Source: Spirochaetia bacterium (lineage in GTDB: Bacteria; Spirochaetota; Spirochaetia; CADAEX01). From it: DNA of 64,000 nucleotides. The notes under the pieces are model-generated. The model searched no databases, was not told the DNA's origin, and worked only from the letters and a program-made list of their open reading frames with translations. The translations under genes were made by a program, and so were the position numbers. Positions 846-9,214 of the stretch are shown here, one piece after another. The first letter of the stretch is position 1, and each line of letters opens with the position of its first letter. The stretch lies in assembly GCA_963662795.1 (NCBI GenBank), contig OY759746.1, positions 160,001 to 224,000 of the forward strand. The letters are read 5' to 3'.

Positions 846-2231
846 ATGTATATGAACAAGGAATCAGAAAAATTAATCAGTCGGGAACAGGGCGACATTA
901 ACTTAAGCACTGCCAGGGCAAAATATCAGGAGCGCAATTTCGACAGAGAAACACTCAAATGGCATAAAGAGGACAAAAAATACTTTCTCCACCAGGCGCT
1001 TTCAACTCCTGTCATGAATATACTTGGGAAAACTGATGGTATTTATATTTATGACCTTACAGGTAAAAAATATATTGATATGCACGGGAACGGTGTTCAT
1101 AACGGAGGATTCAGCAATCCTGATGTAATAAATGCTGTAAAAAAGCAGCTTGATGAAAAGCTTTGCTTTACTCCGAGGCGGTTTTCCAATATCCCTGCGG
1201 TAATGCTTGCAAAAAAGCTTTCAGAAATCACACCGTCCGGTCTTGATAAATCACTTTTCTGCCCCGGCGGATCTGAGGCAATAGAGATGGCAGTTGTGCT
1301 TGCCAAGCAGATCACAGGAAACTTCAGGACTATTTCTTTCTGGGATTCATTCCACGGGGCAGGCTATCAGGCTGCAGGCATCGGAGGGGAGGAGCATTTC
1401 AAGGGAGGCTACGGGCCCATGGTTCCCGGGGCTTTCAGGGTTGAGTTTCCAAACTACTACAGAAATCCCTGGGGCTTTAAAACAGAAGAGGAAGTTGACA
1501 GTGAATGCCTGCGGCAGATGGAAATAATATTTAAAAGAGAGCCGGGGGTAGCGGCAATAATCGGCGAGCCGATTTCCGCCACGCCGGTCGTCCCTAGCCG
1601 CAATTACTGGGAGCGGGTGAAAGAACTTGCCCACAGCTATGGTACGCTGCTTGTTTTTGATGAAATAATCGAAGGGTTCGGGAGGACCGGCAAAATGTTC
1701 GCGTGCGAACATTTTACAGCGCCGGATATTCTTGTCCTCGGCAAAACACTCGGCGGAGGTGTTGTACCGTTTGCAGGCATAGTAACAAGAGAGGAATATG
1801 ATAAGCTTCAGGGAAGATCAATCGGCCACTACACGCATGAGAAAAACCCGCTCTGCTGCGCTGCAGGTCTTGCGGAAATTGAATACCTGGAAAAACACAA
1901 TCTTGTTCAGCATGCAGCAGAGATAGGAAGTTATACCATTGAACGATTTAATCAACTGAAAGAAAAGCACCCTCTGATCGGAAATATAGCAGGCGTAGGC
2001 TGCCATATAGGCATTGATCTTGTAAAAGACAGAGATACAAAGGAGCGTGCAGTACATGAGGCAGAAACTGTTATGTACAAGTGCATGGAAAAGGGGCTTG
2101 CATTCAAGATTATTGAAAGTAACATAATAACACTGAGGCCTTCCCTGCTTATTACAATTGATGAGATGGAGTGGTGCATAAAAACAATTGAAGGGGCAAT
2201 CAGCGAAGTTGAAAGGGGAGATTATTACTGA
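846..2231 (+). CDS. Class III PLP-dependent enzyme, PbfA-like (1-hydroxy-2-aminoethylphosphonate ammonia-lyase subfamily)
   Basis: DEIIEGFGRTG and LGKTLGGG (PLP Lys); EQGDIN, FLHQALSTP, FTPRRF, WDSFHG and GHYTHEKNP match my recollection of PbfA-type proteins. Confidence 0.75.
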   Translation: MYMNKESEKLISREQGDINLSTARAKYQERNFDRETLKWHKEDKKYFLHQALSTPVMNILGKTDGIYIYDLTGKKYIDMHGNGVHNGGFSNPDVINAVKKQLDEKLCFTPRRFSNIPAVMLAKKLSEITPSGLDKSLFCPGGSEAIEMAVVLAKQITGNFRTISFWDSFHGAGYQAAGIGGEEHFKGGYGPMVPGAFRVEFPNYYRNPWGFKTEEEVDSECLRQMEIIFKREPGVAAIIGEPISATPVVPSRNYWERVKELAHSYGTLLVFDEIIEGFGRTGKMFACEHFTAPDILVLGKTLGGGVVPFAGIVTREEYDKLQGRSIGHYTHEKNPLCCAAGLAEIEYLEKHNLVQHAAEIGSYTIERFNQLKEKHPLIGNIAGVGCHIGIDLVKDRDTKERAVHEAETVMYKCMEKGLAFKIIESNIITLRPSLLITIDEMEWCIKTIEGAISEVERGDYY

Positions 2232-2435
2232 AACTTTTATCCCCCATACAGATATACCGAAAATATTGCCGGAAAGGGGCGTTTTTGTAAATGTTGCCTC
2301 ATAAGTATAACGCCAGAATCTCTGGCCTAAGGATGAGGCTCGAGCGTTATAGGAAATGTGAAGCATAATATTATATATCATACGTTTTGAAGTTAGATTG
2401 ACTGGAGAGCCAATTCATGGATTTCGAGGTCTTGA

Positions 2436-2864
2436 GTTGGGAAGGAGCTGGGGGAGATCAATCGCCGCCAGACCCGGCAGCAGGCAGAATGGAAGGCAAT
2501 TCCTGAATCCGGACAGCTTGTGTCTTTTTTAGACATGGACCTTTTGGTGCTCCCGGGAGTGTATCCTCCAAAAGAGGATACAGTGCTGGTGACAAAACAT
2601 TTGCACCTGGATAATTCTGCGAGGGTGTTAGACCTTGGGACTTGAACAGGGGTGCTGGCCATTTGGGCAGCACTACAGGGAGCAGAATCAGTTGTGGCAG
2701 TTGATATCTCCGATACTGCAGTAATAAATGCGAAGCTAAATGTGGAACGGTTCGGATTGCGCAACCGGATTGACGTTAGGGTGGGGAGTATATTTGACAA
2801 TATCTTAAAAACAGTATCATATACATGGTTAAAGCCAATTATCCAGATCTCCTGGAACTGGTGA
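2436..2864 (+). pseudogene. Degraded HemK/PrmC-like class I SAM methyltransferase
   Basis: PGVYPPKEDT...RVLDLGT*TGVLA...VVAVDIS, with an in-frame TGA at 2643-2645 replacing a Gly of motif I; a second TGA at 2433; C-terminal NPPY-type half is absent. Confidence 0.7.
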
Positions 2865-3169
2865 GTTTAACCGAAACTGGTGTATATAAGATTGCTGTAA
2901 TGGGGCAATCAACTCCCGCCGATGGGGCTCCAAGGATGTACTATGTGCTTTCACTATCACTTGCTAACGAGTGCTCTTTATAACAGGAAGCTTCAGAGTA
3001 TGCAATATTTTGAATATGATAGAACAGTCTTCCTTTACGATCCATCTTCATAGTTATATTTATAGTAATATTTTTTAAAACATTAAAACCTATCTATATT
3101 AAATGAGAATTCGCACTCATCGTTTATCTGCAGAACGTTAACCGGCATGATCCATATTCATAAGTCAAG

Positions 3170-4453
3170 TTATACAAGCTCTTTCGAAATGGAAATTGCG
3201 GCGATTGTACCGTCTGCGACCGCAGTTGTTATCTGCCTGTATGCCTTTGTCCTTATGTCTCCCGCGGCATATACATCCTTCACGCTTGTCCGCATATCGC
3301 TGTCTGTTTCAATATAGCCCCATTTATCAAGCTTGAATTTATCGGGAAACATTGCAATATTGGGCAGAAAGCCTGCAAAAATAAATACGCCGTTGGTCCT
3401 CAGGTTTTTGCGTTTACCGGTTTTAAGCTCTTCAACCTCCACTTCCATATCCATATTTCCGTGTCTTTTAAAAACTCTCGGCTCATGCTCAAACATGAAT
3501 GTAATTTTCTTCTCGGCAAATGCCTTTTTCTGTGCTTCCTTATTGGCCTGAAGCTCCGCAAACTGATGTACAATTGTTATGGATTTCGCGAATTTTGCAA
3601 TAAAAAGCGATTCTTCGATTGCTGAATTGCCGCCGCCTATAACTACAACATCTTTTCCTTCAAAATATTTGGCATCGCATGTCGCGCAGTATGAGATACC
3701 GTTTCCCCTGTACTCCTTTTCACCTTCAACTCCGAGAGGCCTGGGGGAAGAACCTGTTGCTATTATTATTTTTTCCGCTTTTAGTGTCTCAACCCCGTCG
3801 ATTACAATCTCTTTTTTTTCAAGGTCTACAGAAGTAACATCAACCGCCACTCTTAATTCAGCTCCGGCAGCCTTTGTCTGCTCCCCCATGTAGTGGGCAA
3901 GCATAAATCCCGGCTGTGCCTCAATAAATCCAGGATAATTGGAAACCTGATGTGTCGTTGCCATATAACCGCCGGGCAGCGCAGGATCAATAATTACCGT
4001 ATTGATATGGGCCTGCGCAAGATAAAGCCCTGCGGTAAGACCTGCAGGCCCTGCGCCAAGAATTGCCACCCTGCATTTTGTTTCAACAGGTTTTATTTTC
4101 TCCCTGATAGCCTTCGCCTTTTCTTCAGGAATAAGAAGCTCCAGATTCTTTACGACATCTGCCCTTCTTATACCTCCGGTAAGTTTTTCACCGGTTGCTT
4201 TTCCGTCTTTGTAAAAGAGAAGTGTCGGCGAGCCGGAAACCTCAAGTTTTTGAGCAAGATCCTTGTTCCCCTGCCTGAAAATCTTGAAAAACTTTATTTC
4301 ATCTCCATATAAAAGGCTTAAGGCTTCATATTTTGTTGCAAGAGCCTCGCAGGGGGGGCATTCTGTCGAATAAAAATCAAGTACTGCGGCTTTTGCAGAA
4401 AGCACCTCCTTTTCATAATCTACCTGGTTGATTTCAATTATTTTCCCAGCCAT
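3170..4453 (-). CDS. Thioredoxin-domain / thioredoxin reductase fusion
   Basis: N-terminal Trx fold with CPPC; GAGPAG FAD motif, SYCATCD active site, GGGNSA, YAAGD; ATG at 4453 preceded by GGAGG. Confidence 0.9.
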   Translation of the reverse strand: MAGKIIEINQVDYEKEVLSAKAAVLDFYSTECPPCEALATKYEALSLLYGDEIKFFKIFRQGNKDLAQKLEVSGSPTLLFYKDGKATGEKLTGGIRRADVVKNLELLIPEEKAKAIREKIKPVETKCRVAILGAGPAGLTAGLYLAQAHINTVIIDPALPGGYMATTHQVSNYPGFIEAQPGFMLAHYMGEQTKAAGAELRVAVDVTSVDLEKKEIVIDGVETLKAEKIIIATGSSPRPLGVEGEKEYRGNGISYCATCDAKYFEGKDVVVIGGGNSAIEESLFIAKFAKSITIVHQFAELQANKEAQKKAFAEKKITFMFEHEPRVFKRHGNMDMEVEVEELKTGKRKNLRTNGVFIFAGFLPNIAMFPDKFKLDKWGYIETDSDMRTSVKDVYAAGDIRTKAYRQITTAVADGTIAAISISKELV

Positions 4454-4457
4454 GTTT

Positions 4458-5795
4458 TTATTTATCCTCCATTTTACTGTATATTGATATTCCCATTTCA
4501 AGAAGCTCCTTTACCGGCCTGCAGTCAGGAGAGGCCAGTTTTCCTGTCCTGTTTTTTGCGACAGACGCGCATCCTCCACCGCAGGCAAGCTGAAGTGAGC
4601 AGTCCCTGCATTCCGGTATTGAAAGAACAGATCTGTTTTCCCACCCGGAGACTTTTTCCCTGTTCAATGACACTTTTGGATAAAAAGTTCCCAGTTCTTC
4701 ACCCTCTTTACCGACTGTTGCGGTACAGGAGTAGATCCTTCCTGTATAGTCAAATGCCCATTCTGTTTTACACCCCGGGCAGGAATCGAAAAGAGGATTT
4801 GGAAGTTCGCCGTTTTCAAACAGAAAGCGGGAAACAGAAAAAGCCGGTTTGTGAAACTGTGTAATTTCAGGATACTTAAGCAGCAGATCATATAATTCAC
4901 TGTATATCTCTGTTCTGGTTAATAGCTCTCCCCTTCCTCCCCGGCAGGTATGGAGTTCGTAATTTCTTCCAAGCTGGGTTTTAAAATTCTCATTTTTTGT
5001 CCAACCCCTGTCAATTGCGAACTGTGCGAGCGTCGGGAGATAAGCGATATTATCACGGTCAAGAACAACCCTGAGGTTTATCCTGTGCCCGGCGGCAAGG
5101 GCCGCGTCAATGGCTGCGACAATTTTCGTAAAGCTCTTTCCCCCGGAAACCAGAGGCCGTCTCCTGTCATGAATTTCCTCAGGCCCGTCAAGAGTAACCT
5201 GTATCTCGCGGATATTTCCCTTTTCAAATACCGGAAGATACTCTTCAAGATTATACCCGTTTGTAACAACTGCAATATCAAGACCTCTCTGAGCTGCTCC
5301 GGTAATCAGTCTCTCTACCCGCTCAAACGCAGTCCTGCCGTGCAAAAGCGGCTCACCGCCGAAAATTGTTATATATTTTTTCCTTCCGGCAAATTCCCTG
5401 TCTATATAGCTGAAAAAAGCATCAATTGTATTGAGAGTCTCTTCCCTCTCTTTTTCCCCGGCACCGTCCGAAACTGATGTAGTGTATTCGCCCTGGTAGC
5501 AGTAGGAACAGCTGAAATTGCATGAATAATCAGGAACATAAAAAATCTGTATCTCACTTTCTGATAGTGTATCAACAAAATCAAGGTATGCTTTTTTATA
5601 AAGTTTTTCTTCCGTCTCTTCTCCGATAAGATAACCCTTGTCAATATACTGCTGCCTGTCGGAGAATATCCCCTTTTCTACTCTCATCCCCTCTTCAGGG
5701 TCAAGAATATCAGCATTGCCTGTAAGTATATTTACTATAAAATAATCTTCTGAATCTTTGAGTTTTGAAAATATGTTATATCTGGAAAAATGCAT
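4458..5795 (-). CDS. Radical SAM / SPASM domain protein (peptide maturase-like)
   Basis: CNFSCSYC, FGGEPLL, VTNG, QVTLDG; C-terminal CPGC..YSC..CRDC..CGGGC..PDC (8 Cys); ATG at 5795 with AGGGAG RBS. Confidence 0.92.
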   Translation of the reverse strand: MHFSRYNIFSKLKDSEDYFIVNILTGNADILDPEEGMRVEKGIFSDRQQYIDKGYLIGEETEEKLYKKAYLDFVDTLSESEIQIFYVPDYSCNFSCSYCYQGEYTTSVSDGAGEKEREETLNTIDAFFSYIDREFAGRKKYITIFGGEPLLHGRTAFERVERLITGAAQRGLDIAVVTNGYNLEEYLPVFEKGNIREIQVTLDGPEEIHDRRRPLVSGGKSFTKIVAAIDAALAAGHRINLRVVLDRDNIAYLPTLAQFAIDRGWTKNENFKTQLGRNYELHTCRGGRGELLTRTEIYSELYDLLLKYPEITQFHKPAFSVSRFLFENGELPNPLFDSCPGCKTEWAFDYTGRIYSCTATVGKEGEELGTFYPKVSLNREKVSGWENRSVLSIPECRDCSLQLACGGGCASVAKNRTGKLASPDCRPVKELLEMGISIYSKMEDK

Positions 5796-5871
5796 CTGAG
5801 CTCCCTGAAATATATATTGCATTGAATATGACCTGAATTGCTGCCTTCAAGCCGTCCTTCTGCTGTAATCC

Positions 5872-5920
5872 AAAAAAAACCACTATTGAGAGTTACCTGT
5901 AAAGGAGCTCCCGATAGTGG
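5872..5920 (-). terminator. Intrinsic terminator-like hairpin between peptide gene and radical SAM gene
   Basis: Minus strand CCACTATCGGGAG...CTCTCAATAGTGG stem followed by T8. Confidence 0.75.
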
Positions 5921-5928
5921 AAAGCAAG

Positions 5929-6024
5929 TCAGTCGTGACACCCTGCCACAATAACCGACACTTTTGCACAGCACTGAGCTGTAGCTTTTGCAGCGTTTTT
6001 TCCGCTGCGAATTAATGATTTCAT
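5929..6024 (-). CDS. Putative RiPP precursor peptide, 31 aa (MKSLIRSGKNAAKATAQCCAKVSVIVAGCHD)
   Basis: Hand-translated; ATG at 6024 with GGGGTG RBS, TGA at 5931-5929, then a terminator; three Cys in the C-terminal half; directly upstream of the SPASM enzyme; below the ORF-track size cut-off. Confidence 0.8.
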   Translation of the reverse strand: MKSLIRSGKNAAKATAQCCAKVSVIVAGCHD

Positions 6025-6064
6025 ATTACACCCCATTAATCAGGCATTATTCTAACACACTGCT

Positions 6065-6715
6065 TTATTTATTGCAGCAGCATGAATGCTTGTATCCTCT
6101 TACAGTAAAACTTGCTACCTGTATAGCCCCTTTATCATAAGGTGCGCTCTCTTCGATAACTGTTATATCCTTAAATCCTGTCCCTGAAAGTATAGACATA
6201 TACTTCTCCCGTGTAACAGAGCCGGCCCAGCATTCTGCTACAGCTTCCGGATCATTGGCATATTCTTCAGGCACCGGTACAGTTGAATAAATATCGCTTA
6301 CCGTGAAAAACCCGCCCGGTTTAAGAACCCTGTATATTTCACTCCATACTTTCCATTTATCCCTGGCATGATTAATTGTACAATTGGAAATAACAATATT
6401 AACTGAATTATCAGCCAAAGGGATATTTTCAAGCTCTGTTTTGATGAATTCAACATTTTTAACACCAAGCAAAATCGCATTTTGCTTTGCTTTTTCAAGC
6501 ATACCATCAGAAATGTCAATTCCGTAGGCAAAACCTGAATCACCTGCAGATTCTGCCATTCTTATTACATCTGTTCCCCTGCCGCTTCCAAGATCAAGAC
6601 ATACATTTCCTTCCCTGACATCTGTCGTTTCAAGAGCTTTCCCGCATGAAAGACAGCATTTATCCTGGGCGAGTTTTGAATATCTTTTATCAATTGCCTG
6701 TATATTGTTTTCCAA
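6065..6715 (-). CDS. arsM: Arsenite methyltransferase (ArsM/AS3MT)-like SAM-dependent methyltransferase
   Basis: LDLGSGRGTD motif I; Cys at the ArsM catalytic positions (LSCG, ISNCTIN, AECWAG); RVLKPGG; C-terminal SCCC tail; TTG start with AAGGGA RBS. Confidence 0.75.
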   Translation of the reverse strand: MENNIQAIDKRYSKLAQDKCCLSCGKALETTDVREGNVCLDLGSGRGTDVIRMAESAGDSGFAYGIDISDGMLEKAKQNAILLGVKNVEFIKTELENIPLADNSVNIVISNCTINHARDKWKVWSEIYRVLKPGGFFTVSDIYSTVPVPEEYANDPEAVAECWAGSVTREKYMSILSGTGFKDITVIEESAPYDKGAIQVASFTVRGYKHSCCCNK

Positions 6716-6740
6716 TGCACTTCCCTTTAATAATATTTTG

Positions 6741-6769
6741 AATATATCATTTTTTATATATTACGTCAA
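6741..6769 (-). promoter_or_regulatory. Sigma70-type promoter of the arsM-like operon
   Basis: TTGACG (6769-6764), 17-nt spacer, TATATT (6746-6741). Confidence 0.6.
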
Positions 6770-6990
6770 TAATGTACGTCACAATATTGCACATTTTTTT
6801 CAGCAGACAAGCAGGAATTAAAACAGATGCAGTTACTTAAGGAATGTTTACGCATCAATTATGCAGGCAATACAGTAAAAAACAATATTTTTCAGCTGCA
6901 GAACAACTTTAAAATAATACATAGTCTCCATAATTTCTTCACATTGCGGGTTTAGATTAGTCCTGAAATCAATATTTCAAGGAGTAGAAA

Positions 6991-7476
6991 ATGAAAAAAA
7001 TTATTTTATTTACTGTTTTACTTGCAGTTCTTGCTGCCGGTTTCGTTTCGGCTGATGGGTGGCCGGGGAATAAAGGTTCATGGAATAATAATGACAACCG
7101 CAATTACAGCGGAAGAGGCGGTTACATGATGGATTACGGTAATTCTCCCTGCATAGGAAATGGACCCGGATTTTCATCATTTACCGAGTTAAAAGAGGTT
7201 TCAGGGGAAATTGTTCTAAATGAAGATGATTTTCCTGCCATTAAAACCGGAAAAGATGTGATGACAATTACACTGCCGGCAGATGCCATTGAAGCGCTCA
7301 AGATTAAAACCGGTTCAAAAATAACAGCTAAAGGGGTGGAGATGCCAGGAAGGAACTGGAGCATAACCGGTGAAAAATTATTCAGAATCTTTGAATTCGA
7401 ATATGAAGGAAAAACCTACATCACCCATGGTATGGGCGGCAGACCGGAACGCGGAGGCATGAGGGGAGGTTTCTGA
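6991..7476 (+). CDS. Secreted hypothetical protein with Gly/Met-rich termini
   Basis: Signal peptide (MKKIILFTVLLAVLAAGFVSA), AAGGAG RBS, terminator downstream. Confidence 0.75.
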   Translation: MKKIILFTVLLAVLAAGFVSADGWPGNKGSWNNNDNRNYSGRGGYMMDYGNSPCIGNGPGFSSFTELKEVSGEIVLNEDDFPAIKTGKDVMTITLPADAIEALKIKTGSKITAKGVEMPGRNWSITGEKLFRIFEFEYEGKTYITHGMGGRPERGGMRGGF

Positions 7477-7506
7477 AAGAAACATCCAGTTGTGTAATGC
7501 AATACG

Positions 7507-7536
7507 AAAAGCCGGATCTTAAAGTCCGGCTTTTTT
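7507..7536 (+). terminator. Intrinsic terminator
   Basis: AAAAGCCGGA-TCTTAAAG-TCCGGCTTTTTT. Confidence 0.8.
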
Positions 7537-7633
7537 CAATAGCACTTCGATAAGTATGATTTATTATATATTAATTTTCAGTATCTCATGCAATCAGCGG
7601 GCAGTATATCTTAAAGTTGTCAGACGGAAAGTT

Positions 7634-7659
7634 AAAAAAACCCCTTTTAATTCGGGGTT
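7634..7659 (-). terminator. Intrinsic terminator of the small ORF at 7849-7691
   Basis: Minus strand AACCCC-GAATTAAAA-GGGGTTTTTTT. Confidence 0.55.
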
Positions 7660-7690
7660 ATTTCTTTAAAAAAAAACAGTTGCTAATAAT

Positions 7691-7849
7691 CTATTCCAGA
7701 CCTTTTTCAGTTTCATTATTCAATACTTCAGTTATTTGCTTATTTCTCAGGTCCAGGTGTTTGATATCAGGATATTTGGGAACCAACACCGCAAATACCG
7801 TAAAGATTATCGCTAACAGTATTAAGGAAATTATTGAATATTCTTTCAT
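7691..7849 (-). CDS. Small single-pass membrane protein, 52 aa (MKEYSIISLILLAIIFTVFAVLVPKYPDIKHLDLRNKQITEVLNNETEKGLE)
   Basis: Hand-translated; AGGAGA RBS, ATG 7849, TAG 7693-7691, one hydrophobic helix, own terminator; not in ORF track. Confidence 0.65.
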   Translation of the reverse strand: MKEYSIISLILLAIIFTVFAVLVPKYPDIKHLDLRNKQITEVLNNETEKGLE

Positions 7850-7987
7850 TTTATTCTCCTGAGGAGAATATACGGCCTCTTTGTTAAACTGGTATTAATA
7901 ATGCATTTATTTTCTGTTATTGATCAACATTTATTGTAAATGCGGAATATTCTTTTAATTTTTTGCGGATAACATAAAAGGAAGTAT

Positions 7988-9214
7988 TTATTCAATATCA
8001 GGATATTTGTTCTGTATTGATTTAATTATATCAAGAACTTCAAAAAATACTTCAACAAGTTCAGGGTCGAATTTACTGCCTGAAAGCTGTGCTATTTCAT
8101 TAAGGACATCATTTTCATCCCAGGAATTCTTGTATACTCTTTTTGAAGACAGGGCGTCAAATACATCCGCTATAGATACAATTCTGCCGAAGAGGCTTAT
8201 TTCTTCACCCTTTCTTGGAAGGGGCTCTCCTTTAAGATTTTTCTCAAGAGCTTTCCCAGTTTGAAGATCAATAAAACCGGGGTACCCGGTACCGTCCCAG
8301 TTTTCATGATGCATAAGCGCAACATCACAGGAAATTTCATCAAGCACAGAATGTTTGCTTGAAAAAAGCCTTGCGCCGAGAAAAGTATGGCTTTTCATTA
8401 TTGTATATTCGTCATCTGTAAACCGTGCCGGCTTTTTCAGTATCGCGTCTGATATCGCAACCTTTCCGACATCATGAAGCATTGCCGCAATTTTCAGAGA
8501 GTCCCTTGTCTTTTCAATTTCGTCTTCCGCTATCCCCCTGTTTCTTGCCCATTTTTCATATATTTCAACTGAATATGAGGCAACCCTGTTTACATGCGGC
8601 CCGGTTTCCTTGGGATCACGAAGCTCAGCCATCTGTATCATCCTGAGTACCATAGAGCGGGTCATCTGCGCCCTCTGAAGAACGATACTTGCCGAGCTGG
8701 CAAAATGCGTTATATACAGCTGATCCTCCTCCGTAAAAACTGTAACGGCGCATTTTTTATCAAGGGGATTGATCATCTGCAAGACACCAAGAACTTCTCC
8801 GTTAAGGTTACTAAGCGGAAAAGTAAGCATCGACTTTGTTGTATATCCCGATTTTCTATCAAAGGTAGAGTCAAAACTATAGGAAGCTGATTGGTCTATG
8901 TTGTAAACATCAGGAATACAAAGTGTCTCCCCTGTTGTTGCAACATATCCTGAAATGGAATTTCTGTTTACCGGTACCTTAAAAGAATTGTAAATAAGTT
9001 TTTTACCCGGCGGCAGCAGGGCCTGCTTGGTGTCATTCTGTGCATGGGCAAAAATAAGATTTTCCCCTTCTTTAAGGTAAATAGTTCCCGCATCTGCACT
9101 TACAAATTTTCTGGCTTCTGACAGTATTCTCTCAAGAAGTATATCTACATCCTGAACAGTATTAAGTTCGGTTCCGAGTTTTAAAACCTTTTGAATTTTT
9201 TCAACTTCTGTCAT
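7988..9214 (-). CDS. GAF + HD-GYP cyclic di-nucleotide phosphodiesterase
   Basis: N-terminal GAF; ETGPHVNRV, LHDVGK, HHENWDGTGYP, IADVFDALSSKRVYK. Confidence 0.92.
   Translation of the reverse strand: MTEVEKIQKVLKLGTELNTVQDVDILLERILSEARKFVSADAGTIYLKEGENLIFAHAQNDTKQALLPPGKKLIYNSFKVPVNRNSISGYVATTGETLCIPDVYNIDQSASYSFDSTFDRKSGYTTKSMLTFPLSNLNGEVLGVLQMINPLDKKCAVTVFTEEDQLYITHFASSASIVLQRAQMTRSMVLRMIQMAELRDPKETGPHVNRVASYSVEIYEKWARNRGIAEDEIEKTRDSLKIAAMLHDVGKVAISDAILKKPARFTDDEYTIMKSHTFLGARLFSSKHSVLDEISCDVALMHHENWDGTGYPGFIDLQTGKALEKNLKGEPLPRKGEEISLFGRIVSIADVFDALSSKRVYKNSWDENDVLNEIAQLSGSKFDPELVEVFFEVLDIIKSIQNKYPDIE

Follow-up and report, generated by a model that had tools for sequence, protein, structure and literature searches.

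The 64,000-nucleotide stretch of Spirochaetia bacterium DNA analysed here (the window) contains a short open reading frame (ORF) for a 31-residue peptide, situated between the genes of an ArsM-like S-adenosylmethionine (SAM) methyltransferase and of a radical SAM (rSAM)/SPASM enzyme. Judged by its conservation, this ORF is a genuine and strongly conserved gene. We consider it likely that the adjacent rSAM/SPASM enzyme uses the peptide as its precursor substrate and that both are part of a four-gene cassette, completed by a fusion of thioredoxin with thioredoxin reductase (Trx-TrxR). As a kind of element, a precursor typical of ribosomally synthesised peptides with post-translational modifications (RiPPs), together with a SPASM maturase carrying a RiPP recognition element (RRE), is known. 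Neither the family nor its motif, nor the constant association with an ArsM-like methyltransferase and a Trx-TrxR fusion, has a name in Pfam, NCBIfam or the source annotations. The peptide represents a precursor-maturase family present in many uncultured anaerobes, under at least five phylum-level labels.

The peptide gene and its family

The ORF is located on the minus strand and extends from 6024 to 5929, with its ATG at 6024-6022 and a TGA stop at 5931-5929. Its translation, MKSLIRSGKNAAKATAQCCAKVSVIVAGCHD, is 31 residues long and has cysteines at positions 18, 19 and 29. Residues 1-5 form a leader motif, MKSLI, residues 6-15 a basic linker and residues 16-31 a near-invariant C-terminal core, AQCCAKVSVIVAGCHD. 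An alternative in-frame ATG at 6036 would give a product beginning with MGCNMKSLI; as this extension is common only to the locus of the same genus, and as a stop codon immediately precedes the M of MKSLI in several other loci, we regard 6024 as the conserved start. The gene is present in a single copy in the 3.93-Mb genome. A sequence-only reading of the window had already described a 31-residue ORF with Cys18, Cys19 and Cys29 at this position, preceded by a GGGGTG ribosome-binding site and absent from the list of ORFs. Our results agree with this description and add that the gene is on the minus strand, that the GGGGTG occupies 6034-6029, four bases before the start, and that the list had a minimum length of 60 residues, which the peptide does not reach. 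Within the peptide gene, the plus strand has a terminator-like hairpin (5978-5994); such sites occur in the region at chance level (4 found, 3.4 expected).

A 31-codon ORF is uninformative by itself, and conservation is therefore the deciding evidence. A scan of public genomes, with one genome per species, gave 581 relatives, and the counts reported here for 80 public loci refer to the best 80 of these 581. The 80 loci are from metagenome-assembled genomes (MAGs) labelled Spirochaetota, Leptospirales, Bacteroidales, Cyclobacteriaceae, Ignavibacteria, Syntrophomonadaceae/Bacillota and delta-proteobacteria. The peptide ORF, recognisable by ...QCCAK...GCHD followed by a stop, was found upstream of the rSAM gene and on the same strand in 79 of them; the sole locus lacking it, L107, has only 8 bases of DNA upstream of the rSAM gene. 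Orthologues of the rSAM enzyme (54-93% identity) were also present in 10 of 40 related genomes, and a small peptide ORF stood in the same place in all eight of the other related genomes with a complete upstream region. The sequence-only reading had proposed to look for the ORF upstream of homologous maturases, and there it is conserved. Over the final 16 codons, all 80 sequences are distinct at the DNA level, yet 11 residues (AQCCAK.S....GCHD) do not vary in 80/80, and the column entropies sum to 4.66 at codon position 1, 5.80 at position 2 and 22.52 at position 3. Invariant residues combined with free third codon positions indicate purifying selection on the protein, and not on an RNA or a DNA site. 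It is therefore very improbable that the ORF is a chance open frame, or has a miscalled start, in a spacer whose conserved element is a regulatory RNA or a DNA site. Its shortness, under the 60-residue limit of the list, would fit such an origin; the codon-position entropies, on which a chance ORF was rejected, the 11 residues kept over 80 distinct DNA sequences, the stop codon fixed directly after GCHD in 79/79 loci and the absence of any Rfam match at E ≤0.1 in positions 2000-8000 do not.

By sequence comparison, the peptide belongs to an unnamed, widely distributed family with an MKSLI(K/R) leader, a basic linker of variable length and a near-invariant AQCCAKxSxxxxGCHD C-terminus. The protein database holds 85 clusters of this family, of 23-74 residues, which contain no Pfam domain and are named 'hypothetical protein' at most. 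When the window peptide was aligned with 58 of these clusters (59 sequences; the other 27 clusters were left out), M1, S3, L4, A16-K21, S23 and G28-D31 proved invariant; the linker between leader and core varies from ~10 to ~25 residues, longer linkers often containing a second CC pair. The window peptide gave no family match in Pfam or NCBIfam. Among the 59 members, the sole NCBIfam match was to NF047871, the model of the ArsD-type, vicinal-cysteine metallochaperone VcpD, which was hit by 2/59 peptides at a non-significant E-value of 0.16. SCIFF, mycofactocin and other known precursor families were rejected, as no model matched the peptide, and the earlier statement that it resembles no known precursor family holds. 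In the ESM Atlas, no cluster reached 0.9; the best, at 0.85, is a 'hypothetical protein', and a cluster of bacteriocin precursors was found at 0.80, both of which are leads only. The literature searched, supplementary genome-mining tables being outside the search, contained no occurrence of 'QCCAK', no mention of the peptide family or of the cassette partnership, and no report joining ArsM with a SPASM or RiPP system. Annotation still misses ORFs of ~30 codons beside SPASM enzymes.

The cassette and the pairing of peptide and enzyme

The gene order on the minus strand is ArsM-like methyltransferase, peptide, rSAM/SPASM enzyme and Trx-TrxR fusion (Table 1), with the rSAM gene beginning about 130 nt downstream of the peptide gene. 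All four genes are present in 8/8 complete related loci, and the flanking genes differ among loci. The methyltransferase was found in 77 of the 80 public loci, the three misses being located at contig ends, and the Trx-TrxR fusion in 78. Orthologues of the methyltransferase and of the rSAM enzyme occur in an identical set of 11/41 genomes (this genome counted), neither being alone in any, and ordinary ArsM-like genes, at 37-39% identity, occur elsewhere. Of all neighbours, the peptide gene keeps closest to the rSAM gene, lying no more than about 450 nt upstream of it in 77/79 loci; the two still adjoin where the TrxR fusion sits upstream (L038, L051, L052) and where a thioredoxin gene separates the methyltransferase and peptide genes (L062, L097, L102, L105). 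That peptide and enzyme belong to a self-contained, mobile four-gene cassette is well supported.

The start of the rSAM gene at 5795 was set by comparison of orthologues. The CX3CX2C cysteines (C92/C96/C99) are invariant in 81 sequences, as are C339, C357, C396, C399, C405, C409 and C425, which form the seven-Cys auxiliary-cluster pattern of SPASM enzymes; the Pfam SPASM model gave no match at E ≤0.01 and no Pfam PqqD match was obtained. A structure model built from the 81 sequences (AlphaFold) has a predicted local distance difference test (pLDDT) score of 92.2, against 58.8 for an earlier model from 9 sequences. Its N-terminal domain (about residues 1-80, pLDDT 96-98) comprises strands 7-11, 18-22 and 27-31 and helices 33-40, 47-53 and 59-79, a beta3-alpha3 topology which we take to be the RRE/PqqD-like peptide-recognition fold. 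The best Foldseek match of the model was the thioether synthase CteB (5why/5wgg; E 3.4e-17, template modelling score 0.66-0.69), over the full length with the N-terminal domain included, followed by anSME, SuiB, TigE and ChlB; a sequence-profile search also placed CteB first (E 1.3e-19). Small genomes of a sister genus (G006, G012, G014, G016-G018; loci L012-L017) contain up to five rSAM/SPASM paralogues each, at 25-30% identity, which presumably are other peptide-maturase systems.

The complex of the peptide and the rSAM enzyme was predicted from both alignments with three 4Fe-4S clusters and SAM, in three runs and with three controls. The interface score ipSAE was 0.87 in 3/3 runs and 0.02 in the best control; the mark used for such predictions is reached by 58/80 solved complexes and by 2/110 mismatched pairs. 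Contact agreement between the runs was at least 38%, with a partner pLDDT of 45-52. On the peptide, the confident interface takes in residues 1-8 and 31, and on the enzyme residues 20, 26-31, 35, 49, 53, 275, 277, 318, 325-331 and 436; among the modelled contacts are M1, S3 and L4 on the peptide side and A28 and D29 on the enzyme side, all of them invariant. In the model, the MKSLI leader pairs with the third strand (26-31) of the N-terminal domain, a prediction that supports binding of the leader to the rSAM enzyme. The proposal of the sequence-only reading, that the peptide is the substrate of the downstream SPASM enzyme, therefore gains support from the close linkage of the two genes, from the RiPP-maturase domain and CteB fold of the enzyme, and from the predicted docking of the leader.

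The pair resembles SCIFF, a thioether RiPP of the ranthipeptide type, and its maturase CteB (ScfB) in having a small Cys-rich precursor beside an RRE-containing rSAM/SPASM enzyme and a sequence highly conserved across many anaerobes, and SCIFF systems are likewise not known to have a dedicated protease or exporter. It differs in that no SCIFF model matches the peptide and the enzyme obtains 71.7 bits with the SCIFF maturase model TIGR03974 (cut-off 425), and in that the peptide has three cysteines instead of six, in another motif, and in every case comes with an ArsM-like methyltransferase and a Trx-TrxR fusion. With PapA/PapB (freyrasin), the likeness consists of an rSAM/SPASM maturase, Cys donors and an acidic residue C-terminal to Cys; the PapA motif is a repeated CX3D, whereas the spacing here is C-H-D or C(C)-x11/12-D, the PapB model NF047865 was matched at 94.1 bits (cut-off 340) and the crosslink here is hypothetical. 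The best NCBIfam matches of the enzyme, nearly full length and with the N-terminal domain included, are the maturases CefB (Cys-every-fifth; NF038107, 147.1 bits) and TIGR04463 (CXXX-repeat, 128 bits), whose names indicate Cys-rich substrates; the scores are far under the cut-offs of 600 and 525, respectively, and the peptide has no Cys repeat. Mycofactocin (MftA/MftC) and pyrroloquinoline quinone (PqqA/PqqE) share with the cassette a very short precursor, a near-invariant C-terminal core and an RRE-dependent SPASM enzyme, and we count their intracellular, redox-related products as a further likeness. The mycofactocin precursor ends in Val-Tyr; the present peptide ends in CHD, not VY, the enzyme scores 55.7 bits with TIGR03962 (cut-off 265), and no MftE- or PqqB-type partners accompany it.

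The spacer of 140 nt between the peptide and rSAM genes folds at -37.9 kcal/mol (z-score -2.79) and contains a stem-loop followed by a run of U (Table 1), which was found by folding and was not listed by a consensus terminator scan. A hairpin of -15 kcal/mol or lower occurs within 70 nt past the peptide stop in 55/79 loci, compared with 15/79 control windows inside the rSAM gene. The hairpin sequences differ among loci, and some Bacteroidales loci have a spacer of 10-20 nt instead. A stem-loop after a precursor gene is a common means of obtaining more precursor than enzyme transcript.

The methyltransferase and a possible role with metalloids

The methyltransferase has an N-terminal RYSxLAxxxCCLSCG motif and a C-terminal tail, SCCCNK; most of its orthologues, but not all, end in such a Cys-rich tail. 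It is the only strong match to the arsenite methyltransferase model NF008823 in the genome. More specialised models were far below their cut-offs (arsinothricin ArsM, 111 of 500; arsenosugar ArsM, 80 of 400). The closest structures are those of CmArsM (E 1e-22), and LahSB, a peptide methyltransferase of a lanthipeptide cluster, was also matched (6uak; E 6.5e-11). Of the 76 orthologues extracted, 72 were aligned, after removal of L106 (read-through), L061 (a run of X) and L067 and L068 (truncated). C24, C112 and C162 align with the As(III)-binding C72, C174 and C224 of CmArsM and are invariant in 72/72 orthologues. The idea of the sequence-only reading that the three peptide thiolates might coordinate As(III) would suit such a neighbour. 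Positions 20-21, which precede the first ArsM cysteine by 3-4 residues, are occupied by a CC pair in 70/72, and from the alignment this pair might replace the fourth ArsM cysteine, C44. The only two methyltransferases without the CC of CCLSCG are those of L053 and L095, whose peptides have one more CC, or a CCC, in the linker. As methyltransferases are normal beside other peptides with CC pairs in the linker, the link in L053 and L095 is anecdotal. The conserved ATG of the Trx-TrxR fusion, at 4453, is 4 nt past the rSAM stop, and among the full-length hits of the fusion the CPPC motif is kept in 74/74 and CATC in 73/74.

In ArsM, As(III) is taken from a tri-thiolate conjugate via three thiol transfers and the catalytic disulfides are reduced by thioredoxin, according to PMC6138428. 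The present methyltransferase resembles ArsM/AS3MT in keeping the equivalents of C72, C174 and C224, and the thioredoxin system in the same operon fits the thioredoxin-dependent cascade set out there. We found no report of a canonical ArsM that needs a ribosomal peptide or a SPASM enzyme. The pairs ArsL/ArsM (arsinothricin) and ArsS/ArsM (arsenosugars) offer another likeness, since an rSAM enzyme and an ArsM-type methyltransferase are encoded together (PMC8552651 and names of NCBIfam models).

We propose a series of interlinked steps for the cassette. The MKSLI leader would pair as a strand with beta3 (26-31) of the RRE-like domain, and the core would reach the active site, where the 5'-deoxyadenosyl radical would abstract a hydrogen, as in CteB, PapB and other maturases of Cys-rich peptides. 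One or more of Cys18, Cys19 and Cys29 would then be joined by a thioether to a conserved acceptor. By analogy with those maturases, formation of thioether(s) from the invariant cysteines by the rSAM enzyme is a serious, although tentative, possibility. As PapB-type enzymes couple Cys with Asp, with Glu and also with C-terminal residues, Asp31 would be the prime candidate for the acceptor; for PapB, thioethers between Cys and carboxylate residues, the C-terminal residue included, are described in PMC12373016. The product would stay in the cell and be cofactor-like rather than an antibiotic, since no protease or exporter dedicated to it is conserved and the core differs little from one phylum to another. 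Its remaining thiols, the His and the carboxylates could hand an As(III)-like soft metalloid to the ArsM-like methyltransferase, or relay electrons, and the CPPC-containing Trx-TrxR fusion would use NAD(P)H to re-reduce the system. An excess of peptide over enzyme transcript would result from the hairpin that follows the peptide gene. From this context, we infer that the intracellular product serves the ArsM-like enzyme as a metalloid carrier or a redox relay and is recycled by a private thioredoxin system. The almost invariant core, the lack of a conserved exporter or protease, and the locking to an ArsM-type methyltransferase and a private thioredoxin system set the cassette apart from most RiPP clusters, and these three features point to a peptide-derived cofactor or a metalloid carrier. 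For the metalloid and thiol side of the scheme, we also count that the two glutathione-synthesis models tried (GshA, GshB) had no match in the genome and that MarR, extra thioredoxins and DUF1847 recur near the cassette. That the peptide product has a role in metalloid methylation is a possibility which we come close to favouring, but stop short of doing so.

Several observations weigh against parts of this scheme. The complex model does not resolve the placement of the core, as the partner pLDDT is 45-52 and residue 31 is the only core residue in the confident interface, and its score may owe to likeness, because the complex resembles the solved leader-RRE complexes of CteB, SuiB and ChlB. 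The scores of the rSAM enzyme with CefB and TIGR04463, like those with the other maturase models, lie below the NCBIfam cut-offs, and as no equivalog cut-off is reached the type of crosslink is a guess. A thioether would spend a thiol, and metalloid binding needs those same thiols. The methyltransferase differs from ArsM/AS3MT in its length of 216 residues and in obtaining 192.5 bits with NF008823, against a cut-off of 263, over profile positions 60-233 of 272; it is also without the N-terminal segment that carries C44 and has the CC pair instead. Neither ArsR nor Acr3 nor ArsC recurs by the cassette, no ars gene being among the 25 most frequent Pfam families of the 150 nearest or inserted ORFs, and the usual regulator is MarR and not ArsR. 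A tie to canonical ars genes was rejected, since none was met among these 150 ORFs and the Acr3 of this genome is about 195 kb away and unlinked. A strong hairpin after the peptide gene is lacking in 24/79 loci.

The same evidence can be set against other explanations of the cassette. The peptide might be an unmodified thiol carrier, an ArsD-like metallochaperone or a stand-in for glutathione, whose Cys18, Cys19 and Cys29 present As(III) or another soft metalloid to the methyltransferase, with the rSAM enzyme acting on the metalloid or on a small molecule in the manner of ArsL and ArsS, and not on the peptide. We consider this unlikely. The three invariant cysteines, a vicinal pair among them, would suit such a carrier, as would the failure of the GshA (glutamate-cysteine ligase) and GshB (glutathione synthetase) models tried to match anything in this 98%-complete genome; the matches of 2/59 peptides to the ArsD-related vicinal-cysteine model are too weak to be significant. 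However, the rSAM enzyme has the recognition domain and the fold of a RiPP maturase, where the model docks the invariant leader, and this leader (M1, S3, L4), which a linker of varying length holds apart from the cysteines, resembles a recognition sequence. ArsL and ArsS are not known as SPASM enzymes or RRE/SPASM maturases, nor are they known to have a precursor peptide. The carrier would draw on the preference of ArsM for a tri-thiolate As(III) donor and its need for thioredoxin (PMC6138428) and on the pairing of an rSAM enzyme with ArsM in arsinothricin biosynthesis (PMC8552651).

A secreted or antimicrobial RiPP is a quite improbable product of the cassette. In such a pathway, the methyltransferase would be an ordinary tailoring enzyme, which might for instance turn the C-terminal Asp into a methyl ester or S-methylate a Cys, and the Trx-TrxR fusion would do no more than supply the maturase with reduced cysteines. 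RiPP clusters often combine a precursor with an rSAM maturase and a methyltransferase, the last residue of the peptide is an invariant Asp, LahSB is among the sequence matches of the methyltransferase in the PDB, and the bacteriocin-precursor cluster in the ESM Atlas provides a lead in this direction. Yet neither an exporter (ABC exporters included) nor a leader or RiPP protease is among the 25 most frequent families of the 150 neighbouring ORFs, and the core, in contrast to that of most antibiotics, is close to invariant across phyla. The methyltransferase, for its part, is far closer to the ArsM structures than to LahSB, and the three metalloid-binding cysteines kept in 72/72 orthologues would be needless for a carboxyl or thiol methyltransferase.

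A bolder form of the metalloid scheme, which we regard as speculative and improbable, is an arseno-RiPP. As(III) would be bound by the three thiolates within the SPASM active site, and a substrate carbon radical would attack arsenic in place of sulfur, giving a C-As bond on the peptide by analogy with ArsL and ArsS, which act on small molecules. Methylation of the bound arsenic by the ArsM-like enzyme would follow, and the thiols would be reset by the Trx-TrxR fusion. In a milder variant, a dedicated ribosomal peptide thiol would replace glutathione as the As(III) donor for methylation in anaerobes without glutathione. If the product is indeed a peptide-derived cofactor or metalloid carrier, the cassette would be a new component of anaerobic methylation of arsenic or other metalloids, a process with a bearing on the speciation of arsenic in sediments and in paddy soils, and it would offer a new class of rSAM/SPASM substrate, in the form of a small, easily synthesised peptide.

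Features and surroundings of the cassette

The coordinates of the cassette genes and of the associated signals are collected in Table 1. A promoter-like site lies upstream of the methyltransferase gene, and a direct repeat, TGACGTA, is found at 6781-6775 and 6768-6762 on the minus strand, its second copy overlapping the -35 hexamer; on its sequence, this repeat is a possible operator.

Table 1. Positions of the cassette genes and associated sequence signals in the window.
Feature	Position	Strand	Basis
Trx (CPPC)-TrxR (CATC) fusion, 427 residues	3170..4453 (open frame to 4501)	minus	TIGR01292, 300 bits; Thioredoxin and Pyr_redox_2
rSAM/SPASM enzyme, 445 residues	4458..5795 (open frame to 5822)	minus	Radical_SAM Pfam match; conserved ATG at 5795
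Stem-loop (5920-5880) with U8 (5879-5872), terminator- or attenuator-like	5872..5920	minus	RNA folding; starts 9 nt past the peptide stop
Precursor peptide gene, 31 residues	5929..6024 (stop included)	minus	Sequence, conservation and codon-position entropy
GGGGTG, Shine-Dalgarno-like site	6029..6034	minus	Direct reading; 4 nt ahead of the peptide ATG
ArsM-like SAM methyltransferase, 216 residues, TTG start	6065..6715	minus	NF008823, 192.5 bits; alignment with CmArsM
Sigma-70-type promoter-like site, TTGACG-17-TATATT with TG	6741..6769	minus	10/12 consensus matches; upstream of the methyltransferase gene

In the public loci, the recurrent additional neighbours are MarR (22 loci), DUF1847 (17), DUF6132 (15), a separate thioredoxin (13), a histidine kinase (12) with a sigma-54 regulator (9), YceI (6) and DUF302 (6); no literature was found on DUF1847. 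The intact Acr3 is encoded at C1:360661-361650. A second Acr3-like stretch, at G000:C1:3921802-3922623, is in pieces with one in-frame TGA and is possibly a broken arsenite-efflux gene. In L106, from a high-GC MAG of a delta proteobacterium, the methyltransferase frame has no stop and continues in frame into the rSAM gene (L106:2161-4302), with the peptide gene inside this read-through in the +1 frame; a fusion, a lost stop or an assembly error are all possible. At 6991-7476 on the plus strand of the window, a divergently transcribed gene encodes a protein of 161 residues, with a signal-peptide-like N-terminus, a Gly/Asn-rich region and no family match; beside the cassette, it is conserved only within the same genus (83%) and in one genome of the same family (36%).

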